Source: Candidatus Dadabacteria bacterium
GTDB lineage: Bacteria > Desulfobacterota_D > UBA1144 > Nemesobacterales > Nemesobacteraceae
Length of the DNA: 59,092 bases
Reading direction: 5' to 3'
Assembly (NCBI GenBank): GCA_007571325.1
Contig: RKRQ01000072.1
Span: 1 to 59,092 of the forward strand
Positions 9,628 through 59,092 of this stretch are shown here, one piece after another. The translations under genes were made by a program, and so were the position numbers. The notes beneath the pieces were generated by a model, which saw only the letters and a program-made list of their open reading frames with translations, was not told where the DNA came from and did not search any database. Each line of letters opens with the position of its first letter. The stretch's first letter is position 1.

Positions 9628-11162
9628 TGGAGAGAGTTTTGAGATATCTTAAGGGGTTTTATTATATAAGGAAAAGTAATTGCTGCGGTACATCGCCAGA
9701 TGTAGGATCACCCTTTACATGGGTACGAAACATATCGACATGGCGTTACCGGTCACGCCGCCGGCTTTTTTCACCTGAATCCCGTCTCTCTATTATTTCA
9801 CTTACGATCTTAACTCTTGTCATTACCCTGATCTGTTTTCTTTCAGGCTCCCCAGCTCTCGCAGAAGAAGAGTGTGGTGAATACATAGAGCACGGTGGCG
9901 GAACCATCACCTGCGATGCAAGTACCTACAATGGTGATGGTGGCATTGAGTACGTCCTGGGCAACGGCGACTGGATCATCAACCTTGAGGACGATCTTAA
10001 CGTTAATACCGAAGCTACGGAAGACCACGCACTCCGTATATCTCAGGCCGGCGCCGGCAGTCTCACCATCAATATGTTAGGTGCCAGTCTCACCACCGAA
10101 GGCACTAGTGCCCATAGCATCAACGTTACTACCCAATACGGCGGCCTCGTCAAGATCAAAATGTCCGGCGGGGAAATAAAAACCAGCGGATCTAATGCCT
10201 ACGGTATTAGGGTAAAATCCTTCAATAATGAGAATATCAACATTGAAGTTGTGGACAACGACGAAAACTCCGAAACATCCATCACCACCTTGGGAATCAA
10301 CGCCCATGCAATCTACGCACGACACTACCTCTCAGGAAATATAAATATCGACCTAGACGGTGCCAATATCAAAGCCAGCGGCAACCAGTCTTATGCGGTT
10401 TATGCAGACCACGATGGGACCGGTGGTGTGACTATCGGAGTTGGCGGTCACTTAGTGTCAGGTGGAAACACACTGGTCATCTCCAACAGATCGACTTCAC
10501 CGGCCACAATCACGCTTGAGTCCGCAATCATCCAGGCGGGCGCTGACAGGAAGGCAATCATCACCGCCTCAAGCGACGATTCCCTGAAAGTGACAGGCGG
10601 TTCGAACAAAATAACCGGTGAAATAAATTTAGGTGCTGGTATGAACACCATGACCTTTGAGGCGGGTGATCTGTACCTGAACGGTCATCTTAATCTCGGC
10701 GGCTCCGGGGAGTTTACCATTAATGATGGTTCACGGCTGATCTTCGGGACCGCCGGCGACGAATACGGTCGTATCACCGCCAGCCAGATGAGCTTCAGCA
10801 CCCTGGACCGGGACCGGCAAAAGCTGTTCGTTGCGGATGGCTCCCTTACAGTGCTGGACGGCAAGGATGTACTGGTGAATGAGGATGGTAGATTCCAAGA
10901 CAATAACGGAAACACTGTCGAACCGAAGCTCTACAATGAGAACGAGGAAGAGGTCGGTTCCATAACCGAAAACGGCATAGTAAGTAGCAATCCCCCTGGT
11001 GACGGTGGTGACCCCCCTGGTGACGGTAGCGGTGGCTGCAGCATCGGCAGTGGCGACAGCGACAACGGCAGCATTGCCACGGTGGGCTTATTGTTGCTCC
11101 TGTGCGGTCTGATACTGTTCCTCAAGACTGAGAGGAAGATGAAGAGAGCAAGAGTGTCCTAA
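9628..11162 (+). CDS. secreted surface protein: signal peptide, autotransporter-passenger-like beta-helix repeats, Pro/Gly linker, C-terminal GGC-TM-basic (CTERM-like) anchor
   Basis: GGAGG RBS before ATG9628 (track start 9582 is TTG); hydrophobic segment ending SPALA-EE; five ~29-aa T.G..A(H/Y).I repeats; ends SGGCSIG..IATVGLLLLLCGLILFLKTERKMKR. Confidence 0.75.
10868..10984 (+). repeat. dispersed inverted repeat copy A (117 nt; partner 58976-59092)
   Basis: Manual alignment to the reverse complement of 58976-59092 gives 114/117 identical. Confidence 0.95.
10992..11027 (+). repeat. tandem direct repeat encoding PPGDG-GD-PPGDG linker
   Basis: CCCCCTGGTGACGGT at 10992-11006 and 11013-11027 (21-nt period). 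Confidence 0.9.
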
Positions 11163-11635
11163 GCAATGCAGTCATAGTTACTGTTCTTACTCTTGCTCGT
11201 ACCGTACCTGCCCGCCGCGGTGGGGTGAAAACCTGATTACCTACGTCGGGCGGGAAACCGCATCTAAAGGGCTTTAACTTTAGTGGTCTCTGAATCTCGC
11301 GGCTTTAATCATGACCGAGCGACGATGCATCGCTCCACAGCAGTCTGATCACAGCGAATGGGGGATGGGTGGCGAGACCGACATTTGATTAAGGTATTGC
11401 ATCACGATCCAGTGCAGAGCTAGATATAGGTTGTAAGTACTTGTAAGCATGAGACCCAACTTCACTGAAAAAATAAAAGTTGGTTTGGTTATCGCCCAAC
11501 TAATTGAAATGGCTGAATAATAGTTAACTGAACGAGTAATTCAACTTGTTCCCAGTGCAAAAGAGTTTTGAATCATCGAACTTACACTGGATCCGTCAGC
11601 GGAACTTGCTGTATTTGTTTTTTCAACATCAGACT

Positions 11636-13369
11636 TTAAGTGGTAAAAAACTGAGCGATCCTTGCAATGTTTGGTGCAACATTGGATGGAATCCCGATTC
11701 TTACGATTTCTCTTCCCTTATCATTGAGAGACTTGAAGTCGCCTTTTGCCTGTGCCATCTTGAGTATGCCGAAAGAAAATGATGAATCAGTGGAACCGAT
11801 TTCTTCAGGTATGTGAAGATCGTCTGCATTATCGCTTACGATTTGAATGAAAAATCCTTCTCCCGAGTCTCCTTTGTGAAGCTGACCGGTTGAGTGGAGA
11901 AATCTCGGTCCGAAACCCAGAGTTACGGGTACGGATGATATCTTCTCAATCTGCCTGCGAAGGGAAAGAAGTTCTTTTGAGTTTTTCTCTCCCGAGTCTA
12001 CGTATGCCTGAATCGATATATATCCTATTTGTTTTGAAGATATAATGCTTCTTAGATGCTCCGGGGATTGTATGTTATTGTTGCTTGAAAAAACAATTCC
12101 TTTTCTACGGAAATCGGGTTTTTCGGATTCAAATTTGCCGGTTTCTCCGTAAAGCTTGAGAAAACTTTTGGCAAAAGCTTTTGCGGATTCAACATCTGGT
12201 TGGTCAAAGGGATTTATTCCCATGATGCTTCCGGCAAGAGCGACTGCAAATTCAAATCGCAGAAACTCTTTTGCAATTGCATCTGGTGAGTCAACGATTA
12301 TTTGCACGAACGGAATCTCCGAGTCCACAAGACGTCTCTTTACTGCATCTATACTCTCGTCCCCTCTGAGGGAAAAAACAATATATGCCCTGTCGTCTCC
12401 AGCCCGTGGTGCATTAGCGGTTTCCTCGTCGAGTAACGGAAGCATTCCAACACCGTCTTTTCCTAAGCTCTCTGCAATTAGTTGTTCAACCCAGTAGCCG
12501 AAGTGGAAAAGCTTCTCCGAGAAGATAAAACCCAGTTTATCCCTTTTTTCCCCGGCCATTACTCCTAAAAAGGTTCCCAAACGGAAAGAAGAATTCTTGT
12601 TGAAGTCCTCCTTTACCGCATCTTTAAGTTCAAGTAGCACTGTAGCGGCTGATTGAAGTGTCTTACGTATGTCGACCCCCGCAAGGGATGCGGGAACAAG
12701 CCCAAAGTAGGAAAGTGCACTGAATCTTCCTCCAATATTCGGGTCATTTATGAATACCTTGTTAAAGTTGTGCTTGAGTGCCGTATCGATTAATTTTGAA
12801 CCTGGATCTGTAATGCAGATGAAATGTTCTCCTGCAGAATCGGTTTTTTTCGAAAGTTCGCCGTAGAAATATTTCATCAGAGAAACAGTTTCCACTGTGG
12901 AACCCGATTTTGAAGATACCACAAAGAGCGTTTTCAGAAGATCAATGCTTTGTTGGGTTTTTAGGATAAAATCGGGATCAGTTGTATCCAAGAGAGTAAG
13001 GTGCAAGAAGCCTTCTTGAAGAGTCAATATGTTTCTGAATACCTCGGAGGAAAGACTTGAACCTCCCATTCCCAGAACCACAGCATCTAAGAACCCTTTT
13101 TTTCTTACGGATTCTGAGAAGTCAGAAATTTCATCTGTAGACCCAAGCATCTCTTCGGGAAGATGTACCCAACCGAGGCGATTTGTGATTTCTGAAGGAT
13201 TATCTGCCCAAAGCAAATGATCGCAACAGAAAAATCTTTCGGCAAATTGGTTCCTCTCAAGTTCAAAAAGCTTGGATTCGATTAGGTTTCCGTAATCGCC
13301 TGCGTACTCCCTGTAGTTTACTGACTCGAAACTGGTTCTGTTTTCTTTGGGCACAGTACTACTTACCAA
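11636..13369 (-). CDS. pgi: glucose-6-phosphate isomerase (type found as the C-terminal domain of Tal/Pgi fusions)
   Basis: NRLGW, LGMGGSSL, SSKSGSTVET, IGGRFSALS, INPFDQPDVESAK, GPRFLHSTGQLHKG. Confidence 0.88.
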   Translation of the reverse strand: MVSSTVPKENRTSFESVNYREYAGDYGNLIESKLFELERNQFAERFFCCDHLLWADNPSEITNRLGWVHLPEEMLGSTDEISDFSESVRKKGFLDAVVLGMGGSSLSSEVFRNILTLQEGFLHLTLLDTTDPDFILKTQQSIDLLKTLFVVSSKSGSTVETVSLMKYFYGELSKKTDSAGEHFICITDPGSKLIDTALKHNFNKVFINDPNIGGRFSALSYFGLVPASLAGVDIRKTLQSAATVLLELKDAVKEDFNKNSSFRLGTFLGVMAGEKRDKLGFIFSEKLFHFGYWVEQLIAESLGKDGVGMLPLLDEETANAPRAGDDRAYIVFSLRGDESIDAVKRRLVDSEIPFVQIIVDSPDAIAKEFLRFEFAVALAGSIMGINPFDQPDVESAKAFAKSFLKLYGETGKFESEKPDFRRKGIVFSSNNNIQSPEHLRSIISSKQIGYISIQAYVDSGEKNSKELLSLRRQIEKISSVPVTLGFGPRFLHSTGQLHKGDSGEGFFIQIVSDNADDLHIPEEIGSTDSSFSFGILKMAQAKGDFKSLNDKGREIVRIGIPSNVAPNIARIAQFFTT

Positions 13370-15353
13370 GGAGCTTTATACATTCATTTAAGATAATTTC
13401 TGTATTAAAGCCGAAGTTGTTCATTACGTCTCGGTATGGTGCCGATTCTCCGAAACAGTCTATTCCATAGACTTTGGCTGTAGTACCCGATCCTGTGAAT
13501 CTCTCCCATCCGAATGTAGATCCAGCCTCAACGCTGATTCTCACACGGACAGAAGGCGGCAAGACTCTATCTTTGTATTCTTGGGGTTGTGCTTCAAAAA
13601 GACTCCAACACGGAAGACTTACCACTCTCGGGTTTGCTTTCATTTCCCGCAGTTTCTCATAGACTTCAAGGCAAATGTGAACCTCAGAACCCGTTGATAT
13701 GAGTATGATGTCAGGTGTACCGTCAGAGTCCGCTATTACGTAGCCACCCGCGAGAGCACCATCTGCTGCCCCGTAGCGGTCTCTGTCTATTATAGGAACA
13801 TTCTGTCTAGTAAGAATAAACGCGGTAGGGCGGTCAGAAAGCCCCATCACATATTTCCAAAGAACTGCAAGTTCGTTCGCGTCGCAGGGTCGGATGACGT
13901 TGATGTTGGGAGTTACTCTCAGGCTAGTAAGATGCTCTATTGGTTGATGTGTGGGTCCATCTTCACCAACCCCTATGCTATCATGAGTGAAAATATATAT
14001 TGTAGGCAGTTTCATCAGGGCCGCTAGCCTTATCGAAGGCTTCATGTAGTCAGAAAAGACAAAATAAGTTGAGCAATAAGCCCTAAGTCCGCTCAAGCAC
14101 ATCCCGCTTGCTATAGCAGCCATTGAATGTTCCCTGACTCCGAAATGAAAATTTCTGCCTTTTCGGTCTTCGGCGGAAAAACTGGTTGTACACTTAAGAT
14201 AGGTTTTTGTCGAAGAACCCACGTCTGCAGCACCTCCCATAAACCACGGCACTTTTTTCCCTATGTAATTAATTAAGCTTGAATTGGCGGAGCGCGTCGC
14301 TACGGGGTCGCCCGAGTAGGGGAAAAATGGCATATCATCGTCCCATCCTTCTGGTAGCTCTCTTTTTTTGAGAATCTCAAACTCGTGAGCAAGTTCAGGA
14401 TATTCGTTTGAATATTTTCTGAAGGTTTTTGTCCAAAGCGCTTCAATTTGATTTCCTTTGTCTATTGTTTCCTGTCTGTAAGCAAGAATCTCATCGGGAA
14501 CGTGAAAATCTCCCGGTGCATCCCATCCATAAAACTCCTTTGCTAGTTTTATTTCTTCTTTTCCCAGTGGTGCTCCGTGGGCCTCACAAGTGTTCTGTTT
14601 ATTGGGGCTTCCATATGCTATTTGGCTTTTCAGTATGACAATTGAAGGTCTTTCGGTCTCAGATCTTGCCCGTGCAAGGGCTTTCTCCATTTCCTCTAGA
14701 TTGTTTGCGTCCGCAACTTTTTCCACATGCCAATTATAGGAGCCAAAGCGCATTTCTGTGTTCTCGGAATACGCAAGCGATGTGTTGCCCTCAATAGTTA
14801 TGCTGTTGCTGTCATATATCCAAATGAGATTTCCAAGTCCAAGATGTCCCGCTATCGAGGCAGCTTCTGAAGAAATACCTTCCATCATGTCTCCGTCGCT
14901 GCATATTGAGTAGATATGGTGGTCTACAATATTGTAGCCAGGGCGATTGAAATAGGCTGAGAGCCATTTGCCTGCCATTGCCATTCCGACAGAATTCGAT
15001 ACTCCTTGGCCAAGAGGTCCAGTCGTGGTTTCGACTCCGGCGGTGACTCCAAGCTCTGGATGGCCGGGGCAGCGGCTGTGGAGGCTTCGGAATTTCTTTA
15101 TGTCGTCAATCGAGATATCGTAGCCGTTTACATAGAGAGTTGCATAGAGGAGCATGGAAGCATGACCAGCGGAAAGGACGAAACGGTCTCGGTTGAACCA
15201 GCTCGGATTTTCGGGATTATGTCTTAGAAACTTGTCGAAAAGCACAAAAGCTGCTGGAGCGAGAGCCATTGGAGTTCCAGGATGGCCGGACTTCGCTTTT
15301 TCCACCGCATCCATAGCTAGTGTTCTCATGAAGTTGATTACAAGTCTTTCCAA
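13359..15353 (-). CDS. tkt: transketolase
   Basis: SGHPG, RDRFVLSAGH, TTGPLGQG, GDMMEG TPP motif, GEDGPTHQP. Confidence 0.98.
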   Translation of the reverse strand: MERLVINFMRTLAMDAVEKAKSGHPGTPMALAPAAFVLFDKFLRHNPENPSWFNRDRFVLSAGHASMLLYATLYVNGYDISIDDIKKFRSLHSRCPGHPELGVTAGVETTTGPLGQGVSNSVGMAMAGKWLSAYFNRPGYNIVDHHIYSICSDGDMMEGISSEAASIAGHLGLGNLIWIYDSNSITIEGNTSLAYSENTEMRFGSYNWHVEKVADANNLEEMEKALARARSETERPSIVILKSQIAYGSPNKQNTCEAHGAPLGKEEIKLAKEFYGWDAPGDFHVPDEILAYRQETIDKGNQIEALWTKTFRKYSNEYPELAHEFEILKKRELPEGWDDDMPFFPYSGDPVATRSANSSLINYIGKKVPWFMGGAADVGSSTKTYLKCTTSFSAEDRKGRNFHFGVREHSMAAIASGMCLSGLRAYCSTYFVFSDYMKPSIRLAALMKLPTIYIFTHDSIGVGEDGPTHQPIEHLTSLRVTPNINVIRPCDANELAVLWKYVMGLSDRPTAFILTRQNVPIIDRDRYGAADGALAGGYVIADSDGTPDIILISTGSEVHICLEVYEKLREMKANPRVVSLPCWSLFEAQPQEYKDRVLPPSVRVRISVEAGSTFGWERFTGSGTTAKVYGIDCFGESAPYRDVMNNFGFNTEIILNECIKLLGK

Positions 15354-15572
15354 TTCTTCATCCTTGGGGAGAAATCCAAGCGGAAATGAAATACCAAAAA
15401 TGACTTGGCGCGCGTCGGATTCATTTAAAACAACGACCGGGATTTCGCTTGCGCGGACCGCTTTCTTTTAAGTTTACTTATATTAAACAATGGGAATAAT
15501 ATATCAACATATACCTGAAGGTGGTTTCACCCGGCATTTCTGCGGCATAAAAACCGCCTCTTCCCGTGCGAA

Positions 15573-16286
15573 ATGAAAAAAGTGGCTCTAGTTACAGGTG
15601 GGGCGGTGAGAATAGGCAAACAGATTTCTCTTAACCTCGCACAAAAGGGATATGACATTGCTCTTCATTACAATTCTTCGCGAAAAGAGGCTCTTGCGAC
15701 GAGGAAACAGATACTGAAAACCGGCTCGAGATGCGAGCTTTTCCATTGTGACCTCTCATCCACTGAGGATGCGAGAGAGCTTGTTCCGAAAGTAATGAAA
15801 AGCTTCAATGGGCTATGCGTTCTTGTTAATAACGCCTCAATCTTCGAGAACGTGAGGTTTGGTGACGTGACGCCCGAATTTCTGGAAAAGGATATGGCCA
15901 TAAATTTTAAAGCTCCTTTTTTTCTTTCCCAGTCTTTTTCCACAGCGGTAGACAAGGGGCTTATAATTAATTTTCTTGACACAAGAGTCAAAAAAAATTC
16001 CGTTGAGCACTTCTGCTACAATCTAAGCAAAAAGTCCCTTTATCACTTAACGAAAATGCTCGCAAGGGAACTCGCTCCCGATTTTCGGGTAAATGCCGTG
16101 TGTCCTGGACCCATTCTCGCTCCCCATGGATTTGGGGAAGATTACCTTTTAGAGATGGCAAGAAGAACTCCACTGAAGCAGCCGGGCTCTGTTGAGTATA
16201 TAATAAACGCGTTTAATTATTTTCTGGAAAACGATTACGTTACTGGAGAATGTCTTTTCGTTGACGGAGGCAAGAGTCTTACCTAG
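15573..16286 (+). CDS. pteridine reductase-type SDR (FolM/PTR1-like)
   Basis: TGGAVRIG, VNNAS, YNLSK catalytic motif; adjacent to folB/folK. Confidence 0.8.
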   Translation: MKKVALVTGGAVRIGKQISLNLAQKGYDIALHYNSSRKEALATRKQILKTGSRCELFHCDLSSTEDARELVPKVMKSFNGLCVLVNNASIFENVRFGDVTPEFLEKDMAINFKAPFFLSQSFSTAVDKGLIINFLDTRVKKNSVEHFCYNLSKKSLYHLTKMLARELAPDFRVNAVCPGPILAPHGFGEDYLLEMARRTPLKQPGSVEYIINAFNYFLENDYVTGECLFVDGGKSLT

Positions 16287-16290
16287 TTAG

Positions 16291-16638
16291 ATGATAATAA
16301 AAATCGAAAACCTGAGACTTCGTACAATAATAGGGATTTATGACTGGGAGAAGAAGAACCGTCAGGACCTAATTATAAATGTCACTGTTGATTTTGACGG
16401 GAGCAAAGCTGCCAAGAGCGACAATATAGAAGATACTTTTGACTATAAAGCGATAAACAAAAAAATCATCAGCTTTGTAGAGACAAACGATTTTAATCTG
16501 CTTGAGAGGGTTGCAGCCGGCATATGCGATATGGTTTTTGAGGAGCCTGCAGTCAGAGGAGCGTCTGTAAAGGTGGAAAAACCCGGAGCGCTTCGCTTTG
16601 CCGATTCCGTTTCAGTGACAGAAGTGAGAGATAGGTAG
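16291..16638 (+). CDS. folB: dihydroneopterin aldolase / dihydroneopterin triphosphate epimerase (FolB/FolX T-fold)
   Basis: IENLRLRTIIGIYDWE..RQ, DYK, LLE..A, VEKPGA; FolB versus FolX not resolved. Confidence 0.82.
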   Translation: MIIKIENLRLRTIIGIYDWEKKNRQDLIINVTVDFDGSKAAKSDNIEDTFDYKAINKKIISFVETNDFNLLERVAAGICDMVFEEPAVRGASVKVEKPGALRFADSVSVTEVRDR

Positions 16639-16839
16639 ATGAAACCAAGCTATTTTTGCACTCATCTTAAAAACAACTCTACTTAAAAAGCTTTTTCGCA
16701 ATTTTGAAACCGTACTTAAAATTCACCAGTCTATGTAAAATACGATCTTGATAAGAGAGTTCTTCAGGATTCTAATCCATTAGGAAGAGGCGAGGTTTTT
16801 GGACACGAACTGTTCTCAAAACAGAAAGAGTATCAGGGT

Positions 16840-17784
16840 ATGAATACGGTCATTATAGCAGTTGGTTCAAATATAGATGCCGAGAGCAACATAAACGTTG
16901 CAAAGCGAATGCTTAGTGAAAAACTCATCGTTTTAGCAGAGTCGAAATTCGTAAGAACTAAACCCATAGGGTATCAAGAGCAGCAGGATTTTTTAAATGG
17001 TTCCTTGCTGATAAAAACCCGTCTTGGCGCCAAGCGTCTGAAGAAACTGCTTAAAGGTGTGGAAATTTCTCTTGGAAGGGATATGGAGGAGGATCGTTAC
17101 GGACCGAGAAAAATGGACTTGGATATAGTTGTTTGGAATGGAGAGATAGTTGATTCTGACGTTTACAGAAGGGAATTTCTTCGCCGTTCCATTGTTGAAC
17201 TTTGTCCTGAACTTGAAAAAAAACTGAAAGATAAACAGGACTTCCCTGACGAAGCTGAAATCCCAGAAGAGATCGTGCTTACGAAGCTTTTCTCAAAGAA
17301 CGATATAAAAAACGCCATTAGCAAACTAGCCAAGCAAATTTCTATAGACTATGAAGGAAGAAATCCTGTTTTAGTCTGCGTTTTGCTGGGAGCACGACCA
17401 TTTTTTGAGGATCTCTCAGAGCATATAACCGTAAAGATAGAACAACGGTTCCTAAGAATTTCAAGTTATAAACATGCGACGCGCCCCGGACCCGCTGAGC
17501 TTTTAATGGACATTGAGTGCGAATTGGAAGGTAGGGATGTTGTAATCGTTGAGGATGTAATTGAAACTTCAAAGACGATGAAGTTTATCCTGCGGCAAAT
17601 GGAATCAAAGAACCCAAGCTCAGTTCGTGTATGCGCGCTTATAGATAAAAGGGGAAAAGATGCAACAGGTTTGGGACCTGATTACATGGGTTTTCAAGTG
17701 GATACAGGATTTCTTGTGGGTTACGGAATGGACTACATGGACAAGGGAAGAAACCTTGAGGACATATATTTGCTCCGGGGGTGA
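16840..17784 (+). CDS. fusion: HPPK (FolK, aa 1-~125) + hypoxanthine phosphoribosyltransferase-like domain (aa ~146-314)
   Basis: AVGSNI, QQDFLN, RYGPRKMDLDI (FolK); then VLVCVLLGA, ISSY, VIVEDVIETSKT, FLVGYGMDY (HPRT); one continuous ORF. Confidence 0.88.
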   Translation: MNTVIIAVGSNIDAESNINVAKRMLSEKLIVLAESKFVRTKPIGYQEQQDFLNGSLLIKTRLGAKRLKKLLKGVEISLGRDMEEDRYGPRKMDLDIVVWNGEIVDSDVYRREFLRRSIVELCPELEKKLKDKQDFPDEAEIPEEIVLTKLFSKNDIKNAISKLAKQISIDYEGRNPVLVCVLLGARPFFEDLSEHITVKIEQRFLRISSYKHATRPGPAELLMDIECELEGRDVVIVEDVIETSKTMKFILRQMESKNPSSVRVCALIDKRGKDATGLGPDYMGFQVDTGFLVGYGMDYMDKGRNLEDIYLLRG

Positions 17785-17815
17785 ATTTTGTAATTAACCT
17801 CGACGAATTGTAGAT

Positions 17816-19621: not shown

Positions 19622-19627
19622 GGGATT

Positions 19628-22268: not shown

Positions 22269-22271
22269 TCT

Positions 22272-47187: not shown

Positions 47188-47476
47188 TGTTTTTTCCTCC
47201 GAGAATCTACATGGGTTTTCTAGGGAATTATATACTACTTTCTACGTGTAACAATACTGAATTATACACCTGTTGCCCATTGGGGTTGAATCTACTAATC
47301 AACTTTGTCAGGACAAAAAATGCTCCCAGCAGGGAGAATCTGTAAACTTATCTGTTTGTGCCTCTTAGATATAATTTCCAAATCCATTATATCTTCAGGT
47401 TTTATGTAGAGAACATGTTAATTTTTCGTAAAATCCTCTTCCAAAAACCTTTCAGCCTCTTTCTTATCCCACTAGG

Positions 47477-49107: not shown

Positions 49108-49116
49108 GGGTCTTTT

Positions 49117-49893: not shown

Positions 49894-49917
49894 TTAGATC
49901 ATTCCACAAGTAAAATT

Positions 49918-50706: not shown

Positions 50707-50760
50707 ACAGCAGAGAGATCGAAAAAATCCCGTCTTCCTTTACCGAACACAGTTAAGTTA

Positions 50761-51501
50761 TCAACCCCTGAGCGCCAAAGCCGCATTGGCTTCCCTGATT
50801 ATGTCGTCTGCAATCTCAAGACTGTTTTCCGCTTTGGTAACCGGGCGCCCCACAACCAGATAATCGGCTCCATATTCAATAGCCATAGTTGGAGTCAGTG
50901 CCCTTTTATGGTCGTTTCTGCTTTTTCCCTCGGGTCGTATCCCGGGGGCAACTATAACGACACGGGTTCCAAACTTCTGTCTGATTTTTCGTATTGAATC
51001 CCCAGAAGCCACGACCCCGTCACAACCAGCCTCAATTGACCTCCGCGTAAAAACCCTTATGTACTCATCAAGTTCTAGATCCTCATTCATCATAAGAGCT
51101 CTTAGATCATTCTGGTCAAGACTTGAAAGAAAAGTAAGGGAAAGAACAAGTGGCCGGTTTCTTTTGCCACGCCCCTGCTTTGCAGCGGCTACTGTAGCTT
51201 TTCCGCCATTTATGGTAACAAATTCAACCCCTTCGGGCACCGCCCGAAGAGCAGCTGCAATCGTCCGGTCTATATCCCCCATCTTAAGATCAAGAAAAAC
51301 CTTTTTCCCAAGTCCCACAAGTTCTTTTACAAAACTCATCCCTTCTCGCATAAAGAGCTGATATCCGACCTTGTAAATGCCTATTCTTTCTCCGAGAAGT
51401 TCCACCAGCGCAAGAGCTTGCTCTCTTGAGTCAAAATCAAGCGCTATTATGATTCTTTCACAACTCTGCACAACACTTTTTCCATCGTTTTCTTGCGCCA
51501 C
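50761..51501 (-). CDS. pyrF: orotidine 5'-phosphate decarboxylase
   Basis: IIALD, YKVG, FLDLKMGDI, APGIRP, VVGRP. Confidence 0.93.
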   Translation of the reverse strand: MAQENDGKSVVQSCERIIIALDFDSREQALALVELLGERIGIYKVGYQLFMREGMSFVKELVGLGKKVFLDLKMGDIDRTIAAALRAVPEGVEFVTINGGKATVAAAKQGRGKRNRPLVLSLTFLSSLDQNDLRALMMNEDLELDEYIRVFTRRSIEAGCDGVVASGDSIRKIRQKFGTRVVIVAPGIRPEGKSRNDHKRALTPTMAIEYGADYLVVGRPVTKAENSLEIADDIIREANAALALRG

Positions 51502-51741
51502 AGATTAAAAACTCCTTTTATCTTTTTTTCCGCCGCCTGTTCCTGCAATAGCTAAAAACACGTAAATATACCCGGCAACTTCATCAGCACACTCAGAAAC
51601 ATAATCTGATGCAACTATCCCCATATATAGATATTCAATATACAAGAATATAAGACCTACCTGACCAGTAGTAAACTCCGAACCACGCATGAGGCCGTTT
51701 TGCTTGACCTGCGTATCCATAGCGTTATCATCTACGGTTAT

Positions 51742-52683
51742 ATGCGAGTGGTAGTTGCCAAACCCAGAGGATTCTGCGCCGGAGTGGAAAGGGCGATTGA
51801 AATTGTTGAAAGAGCTCTAGAGATGTACGGCCCCCCCATTTACGTCCGCCACGCCATAGTACACAACAAAAGGGTTGTTGATTCTTTAAGGCAGAAAGGC
51901 GCAGTTTTTGTCGAGCAACTGGATGAAATAAAAGATCCGGCATCGCGAGTCATTTTCAGTGCTCATGGGGTAAGTCCCTCTGTCCTCGAAGAAGCCAAGC
52001 GGCGGGGTTTCCAGATAGTTGATGCTGTGTGTCCACTCGTTACCAAAGTTCACAGTGAAGTAAGACATTACTCCGAGATGGGGTATACGATAATACTCGT
52101 AGGCCACAGAGATCATGTTGAAGTGATAGGAACACAAGGTGAGGCACCCGAAAGCGTAGTGGTGGTAGAATCGGTAAGCGAAGCCCTTGCGGTTTATGTT
52201 TCGGACCCAGAAAAAGTAGCCTATGTAACGCAGACTACTCTCAGCGTTGATGATACCAAGGAAATAGTAACCACGCTTGAAAAACGCTTTCCAAAAATCG
52301 AAAAACCTTCTAAACTCGATATCTGTTACGCAACCCAAAACCGCCAGGATGCCGTAAAGGAACTAGCTGAGATCTCAGATGTCATATTCATCGTTGGGTC
52401 GCCCGAAAGCTCAAATTCAAACAGGCTGGTTGAAGTTGCAAAATCCTGCGGTATAAAAAAAGCCTACCTTATTGAGGATACAGAAGGGCTGGGACGTATA
52501 GGAACACTTGATCAGAATATAACCGTAGGCATAAGTTCTGGGGCATCGACGCCAGAAGTGATAATTAAAGAGCTGCTTTCGAAGCTAAAAGATCTGGGAG
52601 CCACTAACTTTGAAGAACTCAACTTAAAAGAAGAATCCACCAAGTTTCCCTTCCCCCACTCACTTGAGTTTTCAACCGGATGA
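51742..52683 (+). CDS. ispH: 4-hydroxy-3-methylbut-2-enyl diphosphate reductase
   Basis: PRGFCAGV, IVHN, FSAHG, DAVCPLV, H.EV, ICYATQNRQ, SSNS. Confidence 0.98.
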   Translation: MRVVVAKPRGFCAGVERAIEIVERALEMYGPPIYVRHAIVHNKRVVDSLRQKGAVFVEQLDEIKDPASRVIFSAHGVSPSVLEEAKRRGFQIVDAVCPLVTKVHSEVRHYSEMGYTIILVGHRDHVEVIGTQGEAPESVVVVESVSEALAVYVSDPEKVAYVTQTTLSVDDTKEIVTTLEKRFPKIEKPSKLDICYATQNRQDAVKELAEISDVIFIVGSPESSNSNRLVEVAKSCGIKKAYLIEDTEGLGRIGTLDQNITVGISSGASTPEVIIKELLSKLKDLGATNFEELNLKEESTKFPFPHSLEFSTG

Positions 52684-52991
52684 GCACACTTAAAATGCAG
52701 GAGAGGATATTAAGGTACGTAGCCGATATAGAAATCCCTGAAGGGATAGTGTCGATAGACTGCGAAGTAAGAAGTGGCGGGAAAACGGAAATCCTCTTTA
52801 TTCTTAACAACTCAACATATAAAGAGGGTAAGATCACAGGCACGGGAGGCTTTCGTAGCCACCTTGAGAACCACGGAGAAATGCTAGTTAAAACCGAAGC
52901 AGACGACACCGAAACCTTTATAAGAAAAACTCTCTTCGCCGCATACGGACCACTCGCGGATATAACACTTACAGATACAGATACCGACTAG
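52680..52991 (+). CDS. hypothetical protein (103 aa)
   Basis: ATGA overlap with the ispH stop; ends in TDTDTD. Confidence 0.55.
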   Translation: MSTLKMQERILRYVADIEIPEGIVSIDCEVRSGGKTEILFILNNSTYKEGKITGTGGFRSHLENHGEMLVKTEADDTETFIRKTLFAAYGPLADITLTDTDTD

Positions 52992-53010
52992 AGGATTCAG
53001 AGCCAAAACG

Positions 53011-53781
53011 CTAGTTAGCTATCCAACCACCATCAACGGAAAGTTCCGCCCCTGTCATATAAGCCACGTTTTCACTGTCGCATAGGAAAAGCACCGCGTG
53101 CGCTATTTCCTCGGGGGTAGCATAACGCCCCAAGTGCCCAGTTATCGGTTGAAGTCCCTTCAGGTATGCATCAAGCTCCGGTGGTGAATTTTCAAGAAAC
53201 GCCTCAACCATCGGAGTCACAGTAGTACCGGGACATATGGAATTTACCCTGATCCCGTTCGCTCCGTACTCAAGAGCCATGCTTCTTGTAAGCTGAGACA
53301 CCGCTCCTTTAGTGGAATTGTATGCTGCGGCACCTGGTATAGCCTTAATTCCCAGTATCGAGGAATTGTTGACTATGGTACCTCCTCCCTGTTCGATCAT
53401 ATGAGGAATGGAGAACTTGGACATCAAGAAAGTACCTCTTACGTTAATAGCAAATACCTTATCCCAGTCCTCAATAGAGGTTTCGTGAGTACTACCAAGA
53501 GGAAGCACCCCGGCATTATTAAACAGTATGTCGATTTTTCCGAAAAGCTCTATGGCCCGCTCGACAGTTCCCTTGCAATCTTGCTCTTTAGATACGTCAC
53601 TCAAAAAATACTCTATCCTGCCAGAAGTATCCTTGCCTTCTTCCACAGCTTCCACAAGAGTGCTTTCTGTTCTGCCGGTTATAAGAACATCTGCACCTTC
53701 GTTCGCAAAAAGAAGCGCCGTAACTTTGCCTATTCCCAGGCTACCACCTGTTATTATTGCGGATTTGCCTTTAAGTTTCAT
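53011..53781 (-). CDS. classical SDR oxidoreductase (FabG-like)
   Basis: TGGSLGIG, NNAG, NSS, YNSTK; AGGAGG RBS before ATG53781. Confidence 0.92.
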   Translation of the reverse strand: MKLKGKSAIITGGSLGIGKVTALLFANEGADVLITGRTESTLVEAVEEGKDTSGRIEYFLSDVSKEQDCKGTVERAIELFGKIDILFNNAGVLPLGSTHETSIEDWDKVFAINVRGTFLMSKFSIPHMIEQGGGTIVNNSSILGIKAIPGAAAYNSTKGAVSQLTRSMALEYGANGIRVNSICPGTTVTPMVEAFLENSPPELDAYLKGLQPITGHLGRYATPEEIAHAVLFLCDSENVAYMTGAELSVDGGWIAN

Positions 53782-53954
53782 TGTATACCTCCTTGGCACG
53801 TATTGTATTGATGCGGGTTGAAACAACCACCCACAATATGAGAGCTAGTTTAAACATTGAGTGCAGTTGCGTCAATTCCCACACGACTTTTTTTCACCGT
53901 CCGTGATACAAAAAGTACCAGAAAAAAACAGGCTATACTCAAAAGAGGAGAAAC

Positions 53955-54030
53955 TGGTAGCCCCAACGGGATTCGAACCCGTGTTTCAGCCTTGAGAGGG
54001 CTGCGTCCTAAACCCCTAGACGATGGGGCC
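53955..54030 (-). tRNA. tRNA-Glu(CTC)
   Basis: GGCCCCA acceptor, CAGCC-CT-CTC-AA-GGCTG, GGTTCGAATCC, encoded CCA. Confidence 0.97.
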
Positions 54031-54209
54031 AAACTCACAGTACGGGGTCATCAAATTATCATAAAAGAGGCGCGATTTCAAAAAAGGCACTCTGGAAATA
54101 CAAAATATCTGATACTGTTTCATTTGGTTTTTAGCCAAGAATATACTGTATAATTACCCTGTTATAAGAGACGACCTTACCAGAATTTCTGATCAGAACA
54201 AAAATTAAT

Positions 54210-54995
54210 ATGCAAATGAGCGTGACCAAGTTGACTATTGCGACCGGGAAAACAATTTTTTCAAAAAACACTTACGATACGGTGCTCTTTGATCTTGACG
54301 GAGTAATTACCTCGACGGAAAAAATCCACTGCGCTTGCTGGAAAAAGACATTTGATGAATTTCTCGCCGCCCGCACAAGAGAGCATGCTGAGAACTTCGT
54401 GCCCTTCAGTGAAACAAAAGACTACCTTCAGCATTTAGACGGCAAACCCCGCTATGAGGGGGTGCGCAGCTTTCTGCTCTCTCGCGGAATAGAACTTCCC
54501 GAAGGAACCAGAAACTCTAAACCGGATGAGCGGTCTATTTTCGGACTGGGCAACAGGAAAAACCAGTTATTTACAAAAATCCTTAAAAAAAAGCCTCCGG
54601 AAGTCTACAAAACATCCATTGCGCTTGCGCATCATCTTAAGGAAATCGGGTTTCGCTTGGCTGTCGTATCTTCAAGCAGAAACTGTCGAGCGGTGATGGC
54701 AGCCGCTGGAATAGAAGACCTTTTCGAAATCACGGTTGACGGGGTGATAGCAGCTGAAAAAAATCTTCGAGGAAAACCCGAACCTGATACGTTTATTGAG
54801 GCCTGTTTGACACTCGGAAGCGAACCCGCAAGAAGCATTATTATTGAAGACGCGGCTGCGGGAATTACAGCTGGGGTACGAGGAGGTTTTGGGCTTGTAA
54901 TTGGCGTCGCCAGAAAACATAACGAAAACGAATTACTTTTAAACGGAGCGAAAATAGTCGTCAGAGACCTTGGAGAATTTGTATTTGGAGAGTAA
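54210..54995 (+). CDS. beta-phosphoglucomutase-family HAD hydrolase
   Basis: FDLDGVIT, DGKPRYEGV, VSSSRN, GKPEPD, EDA..G. Confidence 0.88.
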   Translation: MQMSVTKLTIATGKTIFSKNTYDTVLFDLDGVITSTEKIHCACWKKTFDEFLAARTREHAENFVPFSETKDYLQHLDGKPRYEGVRSFLLSRGIELPEGTRNSKPDERSIFGLGNRKNQLFTKILKKKPPEVYKTSIALAHHLKEIGFRLAVVSSSRNCRAVMAAAGIEDLFEITVDGVIAAEKNLRGKPEPDTFIEACLTLGSEPARSIIIEDAAAGITAGVRGGFGLVIGVARKHNENELLLNGAKIVVRDLGEFVFGE

Positions 54996-55012
54996 TTCCT
55001 AGGAAAATACAA

Positions 55013-57406
55013 ATGATGAAGAGAGAGAGAAAAGGCATATACACAGCACGTCACATATATTCCCCTGATCCGTGGAGAATAACTGAAAAGCAATTTTATC
55101 CTGAACTTATGGGTCTTACGGAAACCATTTTCTGCACATCGAACGGCTACATAGGAATGCGCGGGGCTTTTGAGGAAGGAAAGCCCAGTTATCAGAATTT
55201 CACCATAGTGAATGGCTTCTACGAAACATGGCCCATAATATACGGAGAGGAAGCCTTCGGATTCACGAAGATGGGACAGACCATAGTGAATGTCCCCGAC
55301 TCAAAAATAATAAAGCTCTACGTGGATGACGAACCCTTTTACCTGCCGACCGCAACCCTTCTTCACTTTGAACGGTTCCTTGACATGAAAAACGGCGTGG
55401 TCGAGAGGAATCTGGTATGGGAGATGTTCTCAGGCAAACAGATATCGATAAGATCAAAAAGGCTGGTTTCCATGGAGCATCGACACCTAGCCTCCATATC
55501 TTATGAAGTAACGGTTCTTAACGACAGGGCTCCGGTAATAATATCTTCAGAAATAATCAATCATGAAAACTATGCAAGAGGGGATGAAAAACAGCAGACT
55601 CAAGGTAACGGAGGAGACCCGCGCAGGGCAAGCAGACTTGAACACCAAATTCTTCAACCATGCCTAAATGATGTGCAGGACACAAGTGTAATTCTCTGCC
55701 ACTCAACTTGCAACAGCAAGATGACTATTACCTCCGGGGTCGAGCATACGTTAGAAACAAACTGCGATTTTTCTTATACGAGCAAAACGGAAGATAATCG
55801 TGGAAAAGTAGTTTTTATGGTAGATGCCCGTAAGGGAAAACCCATAACCCTTACCAAATATATGACCTATCACACAACTAGGACCGCTCCACATACAAAC
55901 GAGGAATTGCGGGAGAGAGCAAAAAGAAGTCTCAAAAGAGCTAAGAAATTCGGGTTTTCAGACCTTCTTGAAGGGCAACGCAAGTACCTTGATGAATTCT
56001 GGGAAAGAAGCGACGTAAGAGTAGAGATAAACAGTTATGAACAGACCGTGTCTTTCCAGCAGGCAATAAGATTCAGCCTTTTCCAGATGTACCAGTCTTC
56101 AGTAAGAGTCGAGGGAGCTGGCGTGCCATCAAAAGGACTGACCGGAATTGGTTATGACGGTCATTACTTCTGGGACATGGAAATATACTTGATGCCTTTC
56201 CTTATCTATACTTCGCCTACTATCGCCGAGAATCTTCTAAAGTTTCGCTATAGGATGCTTGATGAAGCGAGGAAATACGCAAGAAGACTTAACCAAAAAG
56301 GGGCAATGTTTCCTTGGAGAACAATAAACGGAGAGGAAGCATCCGCTTACTACGCCGCCGGGACGGCCCAGTACCACATAAACGCCGACATAGTTTATGC
56401 GCTCAAGAAATACGTAAACGTTACAGGAGACCACGGTTTCATCTCCAAGTACGGGGCGGAAATTCTTATTGAAACAGCTAGGCTCTGGAGCGATTTAGGG
56501 TTTTACTCCAATTCTGGAGAAGAAAAATTCGAAATACACGGCGTCACGGGGCCAGATGAATATAACACTGTGGTAAATAACAATACTTATACGAATCTTA
56601 TGGCCCGCCAAAATCTAAAACTCGCCGCTTCCACAGTTGAAGAACTCAAGGAAACCGAGCCTGAAATTTTTAAAAGTCTTTCTCATAAAACCAACTTGCA
56701 CCTCTTAGAAATTAAGAACTGGGAAAAAGCCGCCCGTCATATGTACATACCATATGATAAAAAGCTGGGAATACATCCACAGGACAACTATTTTCTAGAA
56801 AAGAAAAAATGGGATTTTGAGAATGTGCCGGAAGATAAATATCCCATACTTCTTCATTACCACCCGCTGGTCATTTACCGCCATAAGGTAGTAAAGCAAC
56901 CTGACCTCGTTCTCGCTATGTTCCTTCTCGAAAAAGATTTTTCGCAGGAAGAGAAAAAACGGAACTTTGATTACTACGACCCTCTCACGACGGGGGATTC
57001 TTCACTTTCGGCCTGCATACAGGGGATAGTGGCCGCCAAGGTAGGGTACATGGACAAGGCGATGGAATACGCTGAAAATGCGATCTTCATGGATCTTGGA
57101 GACATGGGACAAAACACTGTCGACGGCTGCCATATAGCATCCATGGGAGGGACTTGGATGATGTTTGTATTTGGGTTCGCCGGACTTGCCGACACGGGAG
57201 AAAAACCCGAATTTTCTCCAAATTTACCCAAAGAAATACAGAGACTAAGTTTTTCCCTTACAATTCTAGGGAATATGATAGAGGTGGACCTAGACCACTC
57301 CGAAACCAAGTACACGCTCAAAAAGGGAGATGGGTTGGCTCTTTGCCATGAGGGAATCGATTTTGAACTTTCCTGGGATGACCCAATATTCGTAACGAAA
57401 ACCTAA
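55013..57406 (+). CDS. glycoside hydrolase family 65 (trehalose/maltose/kojibiose phosphorylase-like)
   Basis: NGYIGMRG, KGLTG.GYDGHYFWD, GPDEY catalytic Glu, KQPD, GDSSLS. Confidence 0.92.
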   Translation: MMKRERKGIYTARHIYSPDPWRITEKQFYPELMGLTETIFCTSNGYIGMRGAFEEGKPSYQNFTIVNGFYETWPIIYGEEAFGFTKMGQTIVNVPDSKIIKLYVDDEPFYLPTATLLHFERFLDMKNGVVERNLVWEMFSGKQISIRSKRLVSMEHRHLASISYEVTVLNDRAPVIISSEIINHENYARGDEKQQTQGNGGDPRRASRLEHQILQPCLNDVQDTSVILCHSTCNSKMTITSGVEHTLETNCDFSYTSKTEDNRGKVVFMVDARKGKPITLTKYMTYHTTRTAPHTNEELRERAKRSLKRAKKFGFSDLLEGQRKYLDEFWERSDVRVEINSYEQTVSFQQAIRFSLFQMYQSSVRVEGAGVPSKGLTGIGYDGHYFWDMEIYLMPFLIYTSPTIAENLLKFRYRMLDEARKYARRLNQKGAMFPWRTINGEEASAYYAAGTAQYHINADIVYALKKYVNVTGDHGFISKYGAEILIETARLWSDLGFYSNSGEEKFEIHGVTGPDEYNTVVNNNTYTNLMARQNLKLAASTVEELKETEPEIFKSLSHKTNLHLLEIKNWEKAARHMYIPYDKKLGIHPQDNYFLEKKKWDFENVPEDKYPILLHYHPLVIYRHKVVKQPDLVLAMFLLEKDFSQEEKKRNFDYYDPLTTGDSSLSACIQGIVAAKVGYMDKAMEYAENAIFMDLGDMGQNTVDGCHIASMGGTWMMFVFGFAGLADTGEKPEFSPNLPKEIQRLSFSLTILGNMIEVDLDHSETKYTLKKGDGLALCHEGIDFELSWDDPIFVTKT

Positions 57407-57448
57407 AATATCTCAGCAGTTCAGTTTTAGAAAAACAGTCTGATACAA

Positions 57449-58450
57449 ATGGGTTTTGAACTGGAAAAAAAGGTCGGGCTTGAGGCTGTAACAGAGGCAA
57501 CCAGGATTTGCATGCAGATGGGTGAAAAGCCCGAGTTCCGTGAAACACTTTATAAAACGGATGGTTCTCCGGTAACCATAGCGGATTTTTTCGTCCAAAC
57601 GTTAATAAATGAAAAACTTTCGTCCTCTTTTCCAGAAATTCCCATAGTTGCCGAGGAAAACTCGTTTTCCCTTGAAGGCAGCTGCGGGGAAAAAATCAGA
57701 AACTACCTTGGAGAACTTTTGCCTGGAAGAAACTTAGATGAAATACTCCGTACAATCGACAGAGGAAATCATGCGGGCGGAAGCCATGGAAGGTTTTGGA
57801 CACTTGATCCAATTGACGGAACAAGAGGGTTTCTCGCAAAACGCCAGTATGCAATCGCTCTAGCACTAATTGAATATGGAGAAGTTGTTCTCGGAATCTT
57901 GGGTTGCCCGGAGTTGGGACCAGATGTAAACAACTGCATAGAAAGAGAAAAAGGATTCATATTTTTCGCCGAAAAAGGACTAGGTTCCTACCAATTCGGA
58001 CTTTCAAAAAGTCTTTTGACACGTATTTCCGTATCGAACGTCAAAAAACCCTTAGAATCTACAATGTGCGAATCAGTCGAAGCGCCAGATTCCTCCTATG
58101 AATTCTCGGAGAAAGTTGCCCGGCATCTAGACATAAGAGCAAAACCGGTAAGAATGGACAGCCAGTGTAAATATGCTGTTTTAGCCAGAGGAAATACTTC
58201 CATTTACCTTCGGCTTCCCCCGCGAAAAAACTACAAAGAAAGTATATGGGACCATGCTGCAGGATACATAATTGTCAAGGAGGCCGGAGGAACAGTTACA
58301 GACTCATCCGGGAAAACCCTTGATTTCTCCATGGGTAAAAAGCTTCTTCATAACAAAGGGATCTTAGCAACAAATGGCATTATCCATCAAGAAATTCTCA
58401 AGGCAGTGAGAAAAACCGTAGAAGATAGGTTGTCAGACCAAGATTCATGA
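57449..58450 (+). CDS. 3'(2'),5'-bisphosphate nucleotidase, HAL2/Met22-like
   Basis: K.DGSPVTIADF, FWTLDPIDGTRGF, DSQCKYAVLARG, IWDHAAG. Confidence 0.9.
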   Translation: MGFELEKKVGLEAVTEATRICMQMGEKPEFRETLYKTDGSPVTIADFFVQTLINEKLSSSFPEIPIVAEENSFSLEGSCGEKIRNYLGELLPGRNLDEILRTIDRGNHAGGSHGRFWTLDPIDGTRGFLAKRQYAIALALIEYGEVVLGILGCPELGPDVNNCIEREKGFIFFAEKGLGSYQFGLSKSLLTRISVSNVKKPLESTMCESVEAPDSSYEFSEKVARHLDIRAKPVRMDSQCKYAVLARGNTSIYLRLPPRKNYKESIWDHAAGYIIVKEAGGTVTDSSGKTLDFSMGKKLLHNKGILATNGIIHQEILKAVRKTVEDRLSDQDS

Positions 58451-58755
58451 AAATGAAAAAATTATATTTCATGAATTAAAAGCATTCTGAAAAATCATTC
58501 TTTCGCTTCTGAATATTTAATCGGAACTTCAGGACACGTACCTCGGCCGAGTTCGTGATCAAAGAGTGTAAAGTTACAAGGTTCAGACGCCAGTCTTCAT
58601 CCAGTTAAGTGTCGATACCAGAGTCAAAGCTCTTCAAACGCGATTCCCCCCGCCACCGCCGGCAATCAGGGGTTGGTTTCCACTCCATCGGGGTGTATAT
58701 GAGTCAATAACAAGGACCGTGCATGACTGCGCTGCTTAAAACACTGTCGGTCTCT

Positions 58756-59092
58756 TTAGCTTTTTCCTCGTCTTTTCACCAGTCTTGAGGAAAGAAGCAG
58801 GACGCATAGGAACAGGAGCAAGCCCACAGTGGCAATGCTGCCGTTGCTGCTGTCGCCACCGCCAATGTTACAACCACCGCTGCCTGTGTTGCTTGGATCA
58901 GGATCGGGATCAGGGTCAGGATCGGGATCAGGATCAGGACCGGGGTCAGGATCAGGACCGGGGTCAGGATCGGCGCTTACTATGCCGTTTTCGGTTATGG
59001 AGCCGACCTCTTCCTCGTCCTCATTGTAGAGCTTCGGTTCGACAGTGTCTCCGTTATTGTCTTGGAATCTACCATCCTCATTCACCAGTACA
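58756..59092 (-). CDS. C-terminal part (5'-truncated by the window edge) of a paralog of the 9628-11162 surface protein
   Basis: Frame open to 59092; VLVNEDGRFQDNNGDTVEPKLYNE.., (D/G)P linker, GSGGCNIG..IATVGLLLFLCVLLL..KRRGKS. Confidence 0.9.
   Translation of the reverse strand, partial: VLVNEDGRFQDNNGDTVEPKLYNEDEEEVGSITENGIVSADPDPGPDPDPGPDPDPDPDPDPDPDPSNTGSGGCNIGGGDSSNGSIATVGLLLFLCVLLLSSRLVKRRGKS
58895..58972 (-). repeat. 13 x 6-nt tandem repeat encoding (D/G)P linker
   Basis: Units GGATCA/GGATCG/GGGTCA/GGACCG; exact 18-nt duplication at 58931-58948 and 58949-58966. Confidence 0.95.
58976..59092 (-). repeat. dispersed inverted repeat copy B (partner 10868-10984; may extend beyond the window)
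   Basis: 114/117 identical to 10868-10984 in reverse complement. Confidence 0.95.

Follow-up and report, generated by a model that had tools for sequence, protein, structure and literature searches.

A probable species-specific family of secreted surface-protein genes with mosaic paralogs and poly-G tracts in a sponge-associated Candidatus Dadabacteria bacterium

Results

Two Convergent Paralogs Share a Near-Identical Module

The DNA analyzed here (the window) is a stretch of 59,092 nt that constitutes contig C41 of a metagenome-assembled genome (MAG) of a Candidatus Dadabacteria bacterium. The MAG comprises 1.31 Mb in 105 contigs, is 92.7% complete and was obtained from a sponge metagenome. 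Two convergent open reading frames (ORFs), copy A on the plus strand (9627-11162) and copy B on the minus strand (58756-59092), were found to belong to a family of genes for putative secreted surface proteins. The ORF of copy B is cut at 59092, i.e., at the end of both the window and the contig. Both copies carry a module upstream of a low-complexity linker and a C-terminal tail. In the module, 114 of 117 bases are identical between 10868-10984 and the reverse complement of 58976-59092, with exact runs of 43, 29, 16 and 26 nt, and this likeness is far beyond chance. At the start of the region encoding the tail, or anchor, 52 of 60 bases agree (11028-11087 versus the reverse complement of 58822-58881). 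The compared stretches are in frame within the two ORFs. The 38 module codons differ by one synonymous and two non-synonymous changes, and the first 27 tail codons by eight and five, respectively. Thus, the near-identical inverted module described in an earlier, sequence-only reading of the window was reproduced to the base. The two inverted paralogs named there are both real, but they are only two of about ten family copies. On contigs C16 and C81, for example, the module recurs with an identity of 92-97%.

For comparison, a sister assembly (GCA_007571035.1; locus L020, contig RKSD01000171.1) was used. In addition, four public runs labelled sponge metagenome contain the window sequence, and these were examined as Logan contigs (runs X1, X3 and X4 among them). 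The transketolases of the closest genomes, which are MAGs labelled Thermodesulfobacteriota, were 86-88% identical to that of the window. The host is an uncultured sponge-associated bacterium.

The Family Comprises about Ten Copies and Is Almost Absent outside One Species

The whole MAG was searched at the DNA and protein levels to inventory the family. Two complete genes were found, namely copy A and a gene on contig C18 (3780-5645). Six heads run off contig ends (C99, C32, C72, C23, C83 and C55, the last being longer and more diverged), and eight tails lie at contig ends (copy B and those on C16, C81, C12, C84, C95, C53 and C69). All 14 of these fragments terminate at contig ends; they are cut there and are not truncated genes. 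Since the sister assembly joins head C99 (99.7% identity) with tail C16 (99.1%), the heads and tails pair into about ten genes. The summed depth of the Logan contigs of run X1 also indicated several copies. At a likeness of at least 90%, the module reached a depth of about 40 compared with about 10.8 for unique flanks (about 4-fold), and at a likeness of at least 80%, it reached 63-92 compared with 9.8 (6- to 9-fold). A genome-wide count of members, a check proposed together with the first description of copies A and B, thus gave about ten copies.

The protein encoded by copy A is 48-52% identical to those of C18, C99 and C32, and no Pfam family matched it. A search of 5.8 billion proteins for the family returned three matches, including the C18 allele and the sister assembly. 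The 40 related genomes searched, among them 24 congeneric species, contained no homologue, and the species genome collection contained no member. The metagenome collection held no close member and only one distant classical autotransporter, which is described below. Thus, the family is species-specific and almost absent outside this species.

Copy B Ends at a Repeat-Induced Assembly Break

Short-read assemblies break in shared repeats, and copy B therefore ends at 59092. This end is a repeat-induced assembly break and not a truncation of the gene. An extension of copy B was sought in contigs from JGI and Logan in which the neighbouring gene is present, but all of them end at or before 59092, the JGI contig at exactly the same base. 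The family as a whole accounts for at least 14 contig ends in the MAG, and contig-end sequence in such repeats can mislead.

It was therefore considered whether the module of copy B might be an assembly artefact, in which a collapsed or shared de Bruijn node, or the sequence of a co-occurring strain, was placed on the unique tail of copy B. The termination of every fragment at a contig end would fit this explanation, as would the coinciding end of the JGI contig and two observations on other copies. First, the starts of C16 and C81 fall on one homologous base and their first 99 nt are identical, which looks like the signature of a graph overlap with k = 99. Second, C16 conflicts with the sister assembly: about 20 positions differ in the ~100-nt tract preceding the module, where C16 is identical to C81 and nearly identical to copy A. 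Further on, the module of the two diverges by 4% and their linkers are unequal in length by 72 nt, and the identity downstream is 99.1%. In X1, X3 and X4, Logan contigs of single-copy depth join the sister-type tract to a passenger of the C99 type. The initial ~140 nt of C16 may thus be foreign to that locus. Strain-level gene conversion at C16 had also been considered and was downgraded to suggestive, both tract types being present in X1; a recent conversion between strains is no more likely than a mis-attached contig end.

For copy B itself, the evidence points the other way. Its 117 nt match no other copy of the MAG exactly, with three, seven and six differences to A, C16 and C81, respectively. 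Its 93-nt linker has a unique PDPGP pattern and is shorter than 99 nt, and it was therefore bridged by k-mers. A Logan contig of 277 nt from a different sample (X4) carries a B-type module with one difference and 160 nt further upstream, and a contig of X1 matches copy B into the linker, to 58927. Moreover, the ~4-fold depth of the module shows that several near-identical copies truly exist. An artefact at copy B is thus unlikely. The doubt raised with the first reading, that copy B might owe its existence to the contig end, was made unlikely by the unique linker, tail and flank, which are contiguous with the neighbouring genes in three assemblies (the MAG, a JGI contig and a Logan contig).

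Mosaic Identity Indicates Recombination among the Paralogs

Identity among the family copies was found to depend on the segment compared. The four copies A, B, C16 and C81 have an identity of 94-97% in the module, 78-88% in the tail and 50-64% in the 3' flank. For A and B, the values are 97.4% (module), 78.4% (tail) and 62% (flank); for A and C18, they are 72.6%, 81.5% and 69%. Counted as differences (A-B/A-C18), the module has 3/32, the tail 29/25 and the flank 62/58, and Fisher tests showed that this ratio is heterogeneous between segments (p = 1.1e-5 and 1.9e-6). When A-B, A-C16 and A-C81 were each related to A-C18, the heterogeneity of relative distances had p values between 1e-3 and 3e-7. 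Unequal distance ratios between segments exclude a single tree, i.e., a single duplication with segment-specific constraint.

The same evidence bears on a plain recent duplication without conversion, in which A, B, C16 and C81 would be young copies with the module under stronger purifying selection. The module is conserved at the protein level across the family, as this explanation would have it, and the comparison for copy B covers 117 nt. In the comparison with C18, however, the module is less conserved (73%) than the tail (81.5%), and it is therefore not intrinsically slower. Nor does selection on the protein fit the silent changes between A and B, of which there is one in 38 module codons and eight in 27 tail codons, or the flank divergence of 38%. 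With segment ratios unequal at p of about 1e-5, a duplication of this kind is improbable.

Further signs of recombination were seen in other copies. The tail of C53 resembles that of C16 (87%), yet its flank resembles that of C81 (64%). When site compatibility was tested by permutation (PHI-type test) for the combined tail and flank of seven copies, p was 0.0005. Between copies A and C99, identity is 31-60% in the middle of the passenger and 78-88% from about 10320 onward. Thus, the pattern is one of graded mosaicism and not of one sharp block. There is good support for recombination among the paralogs, with gene conversion as the simplest form, and at least four copies were involved. The earlier claim that the module was homogenised by gene conversion and is younger than the anchor was therefore supported in essence for A and B, but the process concerned four copies rather than two, and ambiguous contig ends make the linkage of some copies less secure. 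Uniform identity of ~97% over whole genes, which would have indicated simple duplication, was not observed.

Poly-G Tracts at the Family Heads Suggest Phase Variation

Tracts of nine or ten G residues were found at codons 13-16 of four heads. The tracts of C23, C83 and C99 are G9 and in frame; that of C32 is G10 and out of frame, with a TAA directly after the tract. The C99 tract differs in length between assemblies, being G9 in the MAG and G8 in the 99.7%-identical contig RKSD01000171.1, where the frame from the ATG ends in TAA. The gene caller of the sister assembly picked a TTG start inside the tract (MQGGVIG...). Tracts also occur outside the coding region: C83 has a second G9 over the ribosome-binding site (RBS), C18 has a G10 about 130 nt upstream of its start beside the promoter, and C55 has a C9 that precedes its start by about 40 nt. 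No tract is present in C72 or in copy A, which reads AAGGAAAAG at the poly-G position of the other heads.

Across the genome, G/C runs of 7, 8, 9 and 10 nt were observed 6, 0, 9 and 3 times, respectively, compared with 51, 10.2, 2.1 and 0.4 expected as means of order-3 Markov simulations. Contingency loci would be expected to show this pattern, in which runs of 7-8 nt are depleted and those of 9-10 nt retained. Family heads account for seven of the 12 long tracts (9-10 nt; Table 1). Thus, the hallmarks of contingency loci, namely a tract at the 5' end, a length difference that changes the frame, and over-representation, were all found. An organization with silent cassettes, as in pilE/pilS, vlsE or msp2, was not: each of the seven aligned heads is equipped with a promoter-like site, an RBS and an ATG. 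The suggestion that the paralogs form a variable surface-antigen family was accordingly supported by about ten promoter-bearing paralogs, their diverged passengers, the in-frame and out-of-frame states of the poly-G tracts, and the variable linkers.

Among the remaining tracts, the one on C22 lies at the start of a gene for a GT2-like membrane glycosyltransferase, the one on C104 upstream of a gene for a collagen-like lipoprotein (GxP repeat), and the one on C82 within a remnant resembling the family leader. All 25 congeners sampled have G9+ windows, their number ranging from few to several hundred (552 in genome G016); these counts are of overlapping windows, some of which are contig-end runs. 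In closed genomes, tracts reach ~13 nt. Long poly-G tracts may thus be a genus-wide feature. Loss of mismatch repair was considered as a driver and dropped, MutL being intact. A MutS_V domain was not found in the MAG and is present in 25 of 25 congeners; since MutL is intact, the absence of mutS is more likely an assembly gap. The MutL gene (C18:6659-7087) lies just upstream of the C18 family gene.

Gene Architecture and the Predicted Beta-Solenoid Passenger

Each family gene consists of a promoter, RBS and ATG, a long signal peptide, the passenger, a conserved pre-linker module of ~65 aa, a variable linker and the C-terminal tail. The coordinates of these features in copies A and B are given in Table 1, together with those of the long tracts. 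Upstream of all seven aligned heads, the DNA contains a conserved TTGATT ... (A)TGTTA(T/C)C block. The assignment of the ATG of copy A is supported by head C99, which has an in-frame deletion of 27 codons downstream and keeps the aligned ATG as its sole plausible start. The leader of the family, a signal peptide of 79 aa, contains a conserved n-region and a cleavage-like site, SPALA|(E/D)NECG, the vertical bar marking the presumed cut.

Table 1. Coordinates of family features in copies A and B (window positions) and of long G/C tracts (contig:positions).
Feature	Position	Strand	Description
Copy A, complete gene	9627..11162	+	511 aa; ATG start likely, stop codon ends at 11162
Copy A, promoter-like site	9528..9555	+	TTGATT 9528-9533, 16-nt spacer, TATTAA 9550-9555
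Copy A, RBS and start	9614..9629	+	AGGAGG 9614-9619, ATG 9627; both common to other heads
Copy A, signal peptide	9627..9863	+	79 aa; conserved n-region GSPFxWVRNISTW..RSRRRLFSPE, hydrophobic core, SPALA/EEECG (presumed cut at slash)
Copy A, diverged passenger, predicted beta-solenoid	9864..10789	+	repeated xxAxGIxV/A..H.G.G.I.I units
Copy A, pre-linker module	10790..10984	+	10868-10984 shared with copy B
Copy A, Pro/Gly/Asp low-complexity linker	10985..11027	+	NPPGDGGDPPGDG
Copy A, C-terminal tripartite tail	11028..11162	+	SGGCSIGSGDSDNGS, hydrophobic helix IATVGLLLLLCGLILFL, basic end KTERKMKRARVS, stop
Copy A, non-coding 3' flank	11163..11420	+	homologous in most family copies
Copy B, module	58976..59092	-	cut by contig end
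Copy B, linker	58882..58975	-	ADPDPGPDPDPGPDP...PSNTG; sequence unique
Copy B, tail	58756..58881	-	SGGCNIGGGDSSNGS, hydrophobic helix, RLVKRRGKS, stop
Copy B, 3' flank	58450..58755	-	homologous to flanks of C84, C16, C18, C12, C53 and C69
Tracts at family heads	C23:8369-8377, C32:6617-6626, C83:13488-13496 and 13536-13544, C99:1137-1145, C18:5774-5783, C55:48063-48071
Other tracts	C22:8256-8265, C104:1112-1120, C82:3932-3940, C3:2723-2731, C49:23997-24005

The passenger is predicted to be an autotransporter-like beta-solenoid. In an AlphaFold2 model, residues 85-373 form short regular strands with a pLDDT of about 70-89. Foldseek returned weak matches (E >= 0.1), nearly all of them to right-handed beta-helix proteins, including the passengers of Ag43 and Vag8. 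No PDB match with E < 0.09 was obtained in the structure search, so that the passenger was assigned to the beta-helices from the kind of protein among the weak matches and from the strand pattern. At the nucleotide level, the passenger of copy A is 31-88% identical to those of other copies in sliding windows.

The Pro/Asp/Gly linker differs in type and length in every copy, with PD, PPGDG or PPDK repeats. Logan contigs showed skips of 36, 42, 66 and 72 nt within PD linkers; those of 36 and 42 nt probably come from other copies. Linkers are polymorphic in length, as seen at 58906-58964 of copy B and in C16, the PD repeat of which is 72 nt longer than in the sister assembly.

A non-coding 3' flank of ~250 nt is homologous among most family copies. 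Two types were distinguished, type 1 in A, B, C16, C18, C12, C84 and C69, and type 2 in C81 and C53. In C12, a deletion takes out the stop codon and part of the flank. Homologues of the flank of copy A occur solely behind family tails (C84, C12, C16, C18, C53, C69 and B) and nowhere else in the genome, and the candidate explanation of a dispersed REP-like element was rejected for this reason. An Rfam scan of the whole window returned only three tRNAs and no match for the conserved 3' flanks.

The tail of copy B has a 1-nt deletion at 58795-58805 (near 58800) relative to all other tails, and its end reads ...LLLSSRLVKRRGKS before the stop. The canonical family ending, ...FLKTGEKTRKKLKRPTV, is found in another frame of copy B (frame match C41 58739-58867). 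A helix and basic residues at the end remain despite the deletion, and the tail may thus still function; alternatively, the deletion may be an error of assembly.

The C-Terminal Tail Resembles a MYXO-CTERM-Type Sorting Signal

The family tail of 45 aa consists of an SGGC(S/N)IGGGDSxNGS motif, a hydrophobic helix and a K/R-rich end. GGC followed by the helix and the K/R-rich end was found in all eight tails in which the motif region is present, and the cysteine is invariant in an alignment of four proteins (C471). With its invariant Cys motif, transmembrane helix and basic C-terminal cluster, the family tail is tripartite like MYXO-CTERM. It differs in its motif-to-helix spacing of ~14 residues after the cysteine and in a basic cluster that is Lys-rich rather than Arg-rich. 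Searches with other CTERM models (Synerg-, JDVT- and CGP-CTERM) gave no match to the tails at E <= 10. A match to the LPXTG anchor (17 bits) was rejected because no LPXTG motif is present.

Tripartite tails with a cysteine are processed by myxosortases, a family of CPBP proteases (10.1101/2023.06.07.544157), and processing of TraA by MrtX was proven experimentally (Guo et al. 2025, PMC11980579). No exosortase or archaeosortase was found in the genome. The MAG encodes one CPBP/Rce1-like intramembrane protease (C62:2017-2715, minus strand; a frame of 233 codons, 201 aa from the first ATG), and its best matches are all to myxosortase models, namely MrtP (73.6 bits; cut-off 250), Mrt_core (71.3; cut-off 100) and MrtS (61.1; cut-off 130). 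All of these scores lie below the curated cut-offs, as do those of further matches to MrtC and MrtX, and this may be a second likeness to the MYXO-CTERM system. As the candidate sorting enzyme, the C62 protease would cut the tail, the passenger staying on the cell surface.

A further protein with such a tail is encoded on C88 (2-1483, plus strand). This 5'-truncated protein of at least 493 aa has a zinc-metalloprotease-like motif, HEMIHGLG, matches NF038122 with E = 6.6e-5, which is below the cut-off, and ends in SGGC, a helix and a basic tail. Since this protein is unrelated to the family, the tail appears from its distribution to be a portable sorting tag, with two passenger types only. In this it is unlike Myxococcus, which has dozens of tail carriers. 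By analogy, the tail would work like a MYXO-CTERM-type signal, but it is not filed as a member of that family.

A 48-kb Inversion Would Be an Occasional By-Product

Since the two genes are convergent, recombination between their modules would place 10985-58975 in the opposite orientation and swap linker, tail and flank between the passengers. The sequence-only reading had proposed such an inversion of ~48 kb. The geometry is right and RecA is encoded in the MAG, but as a mechanism, the inversion was left without support: a single arrangement was seen in every assembly, the longest exact run is 43 nt, and no tyrosine recombinase was found on contig C41. The four of the genome lie on C34, C36, C79 and C4; serine invertases were not searched for. 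A site-specific invertible switch of the Hin, Fim or Bacteroides type would have a dedicated invertase beside short inverted repeats around a promoter or gene end, and the flanking genes scanned proved to be metabolic, with oxaloacetate decarboxylase genes and an inositol monophosphatase gene just outside the two copies. Six genes within the interval were scanned and found to be core genes, encoding a phosphoglucose isomerase-like protein, a transketolase, a sulfite/nitrite reductase, a helicase, an RNB-domain RNase (RNase R/II type) and a GH65 protein, and the three tRNAs also lie within the interval. A programmed switch, with the modules as crossover site of a regular inversion that swaps linker and tail ends, is thus very improbable despite the inverted repeat in convergent genes and the presence of RecA, since the sampled interval genes are those of core metabolism and RNA/DNA enzymes, the module occurs in at least two further copies elsewhere and so forms no dedicated pair, and the exchanged ends are equivalent in function. 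Owing to this equivalence, a swap would change little. If A and B recombined reciprocally, inversion of the 48 kb would be an occasional by-product and not a designed switch.

Discussion

Families of variable surface proteins are well known from pathogens. The bab/hop genes of Helicobacter pylori (babA/babB) are paralogs that are conserved at both the 5' and the 3' end and diverged in between. They undergo RecA-dependent gene conversion between loci, and a simple CT dinucleotide repeat in the signal-peptide region gives frame-dependent on and off states; the proteins are beta-barrel outer-membrane proteins. In contrast to bab, the family described here combines a beta-solenoid passenger with a Cys-type C-terminal tail (cleavage predicted), a poly-G tract and a sponge-symbiont host. 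The Pmp proteins of Chlamydia and the Opa proteins of Neisseria likewise form large, species-specific families of surface adhesins that are switched by slippage in a repeat in the 5' coding region, i.e., poly-G in some C. pneumoniae pmp genes and CTCTT in the opa leader. Pmps have beta-helix passengers and are type V autotransporters with a C-terminal beta-barrel. The family differs from them in being without a barrel (no Pfam match; 45 aa after the linker).

Likeness to type Va autotransporters is seen in the passenger, a repeat beta-solenoid with Ag43 and Vag8 as weak Foldseek neighbours. The distant metagenome protein mentioned above, L119 (contig Ga0308159_1000519, 2986-6579), is a high-GC classical autotransporter of at least 1198 aa with the start of the beta-domain visible. 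It has a mature N-terminus of the family type (SPALADNECG..GGGTVVC, compared with SPALA|(D/E)NECG..GGGTIxC in the family) and is 29% identical. These likenesses in sequence hint that the family passenger may derive from type Va autotransporters. The 12-stranded beta-barrel translocator that defines this type was not found: there is no Pfam match, the tail is 45 aa long and the model shows a single C-terminal helix. Without a beta-barrel, the family is not an autotransporter and is expected to be exported by another route, e.g., through a secretin of the type II secretion system (T2SS) type, as proposed for MYXO-CTERM proteins. A secretin is present in the genome.

Taken together, the results argue for a species-specific family of at least ten secreted surface-protein genes with gene conversion between paralogs, probable switching by poly-G tracts and a tail that would be cut by a protease. 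We assign this reading a probability of about 0.7. Non-reciprocal recombination of the RecA type among the paralogs would homogenise the module, and the conserved 5' and 3' ends would allow passengers, linkers and tails to be reshuffled. Slippage between G9 and G10 at codons 13-16, or in the promoter/RBS region, would switch single genes on or off.

Several points weigh against this reading. The evidence on the family was drawn entirely from a natural population, in the form of short-read MAG and contig data. The linkage of module and tail is certain only for copy A and reasonably so for copy B with its unique linker, and the common start of C16 and C81 and the possibly foreign end of C16, described above, belong here as well. 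The PHI-type test was not significant for module plus tail plus flank of five copies or for the tail alone of seven copies. The difference in tract length rests on one locus in two assemblies; no tract indel variants were found in the Logan contigs, in which X1 repeats the lengths of the MAG and the other runs are uncovered or broken at the tracts. As for the tail, two tails scored 13.1 and 11.1 bits against TIGR03901 (MYXO-CTERM), for which the cut-off is 20, a third had no match, and every score of the C62 protease lies under the curated cut-off of its model.

The type of system is already known from Helicobacter bab, Neisseria opa and Chlamydia pmp; what is new is the combination of domains, the unmodelled tail and the sponge-symbiont host. 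Held more tentatively, and somewhat doubtful as a whole, is the picture of a small-genome sponge symbiont that keeps ~10 beta-solenoid adhesins, in which the barrel has been exchanged for an unmodelled Cys tail, and varies them by poly-G tracts and recombination. A full-text literature search for phase variation in sponge symbionts gave nothing relevant. If the picture is true, an autotransporter-like passenger would be paired with a myxosortase-type tail, a signal missed by current curated models. The sponge feeds by phagocytosing bacteria, and the persistence of symbionts inside this host is little understood. Homopolymer slippage and recombination among paralogs would then provide a concrete, testable form of pathogen-like surface variation in a symbiont. 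This would amount to antigenic or phase variation in the style of pathogens within a mutualistic or commensal animal symbiosis, directed, for example, against phagocytosis by the sponge or against phage.

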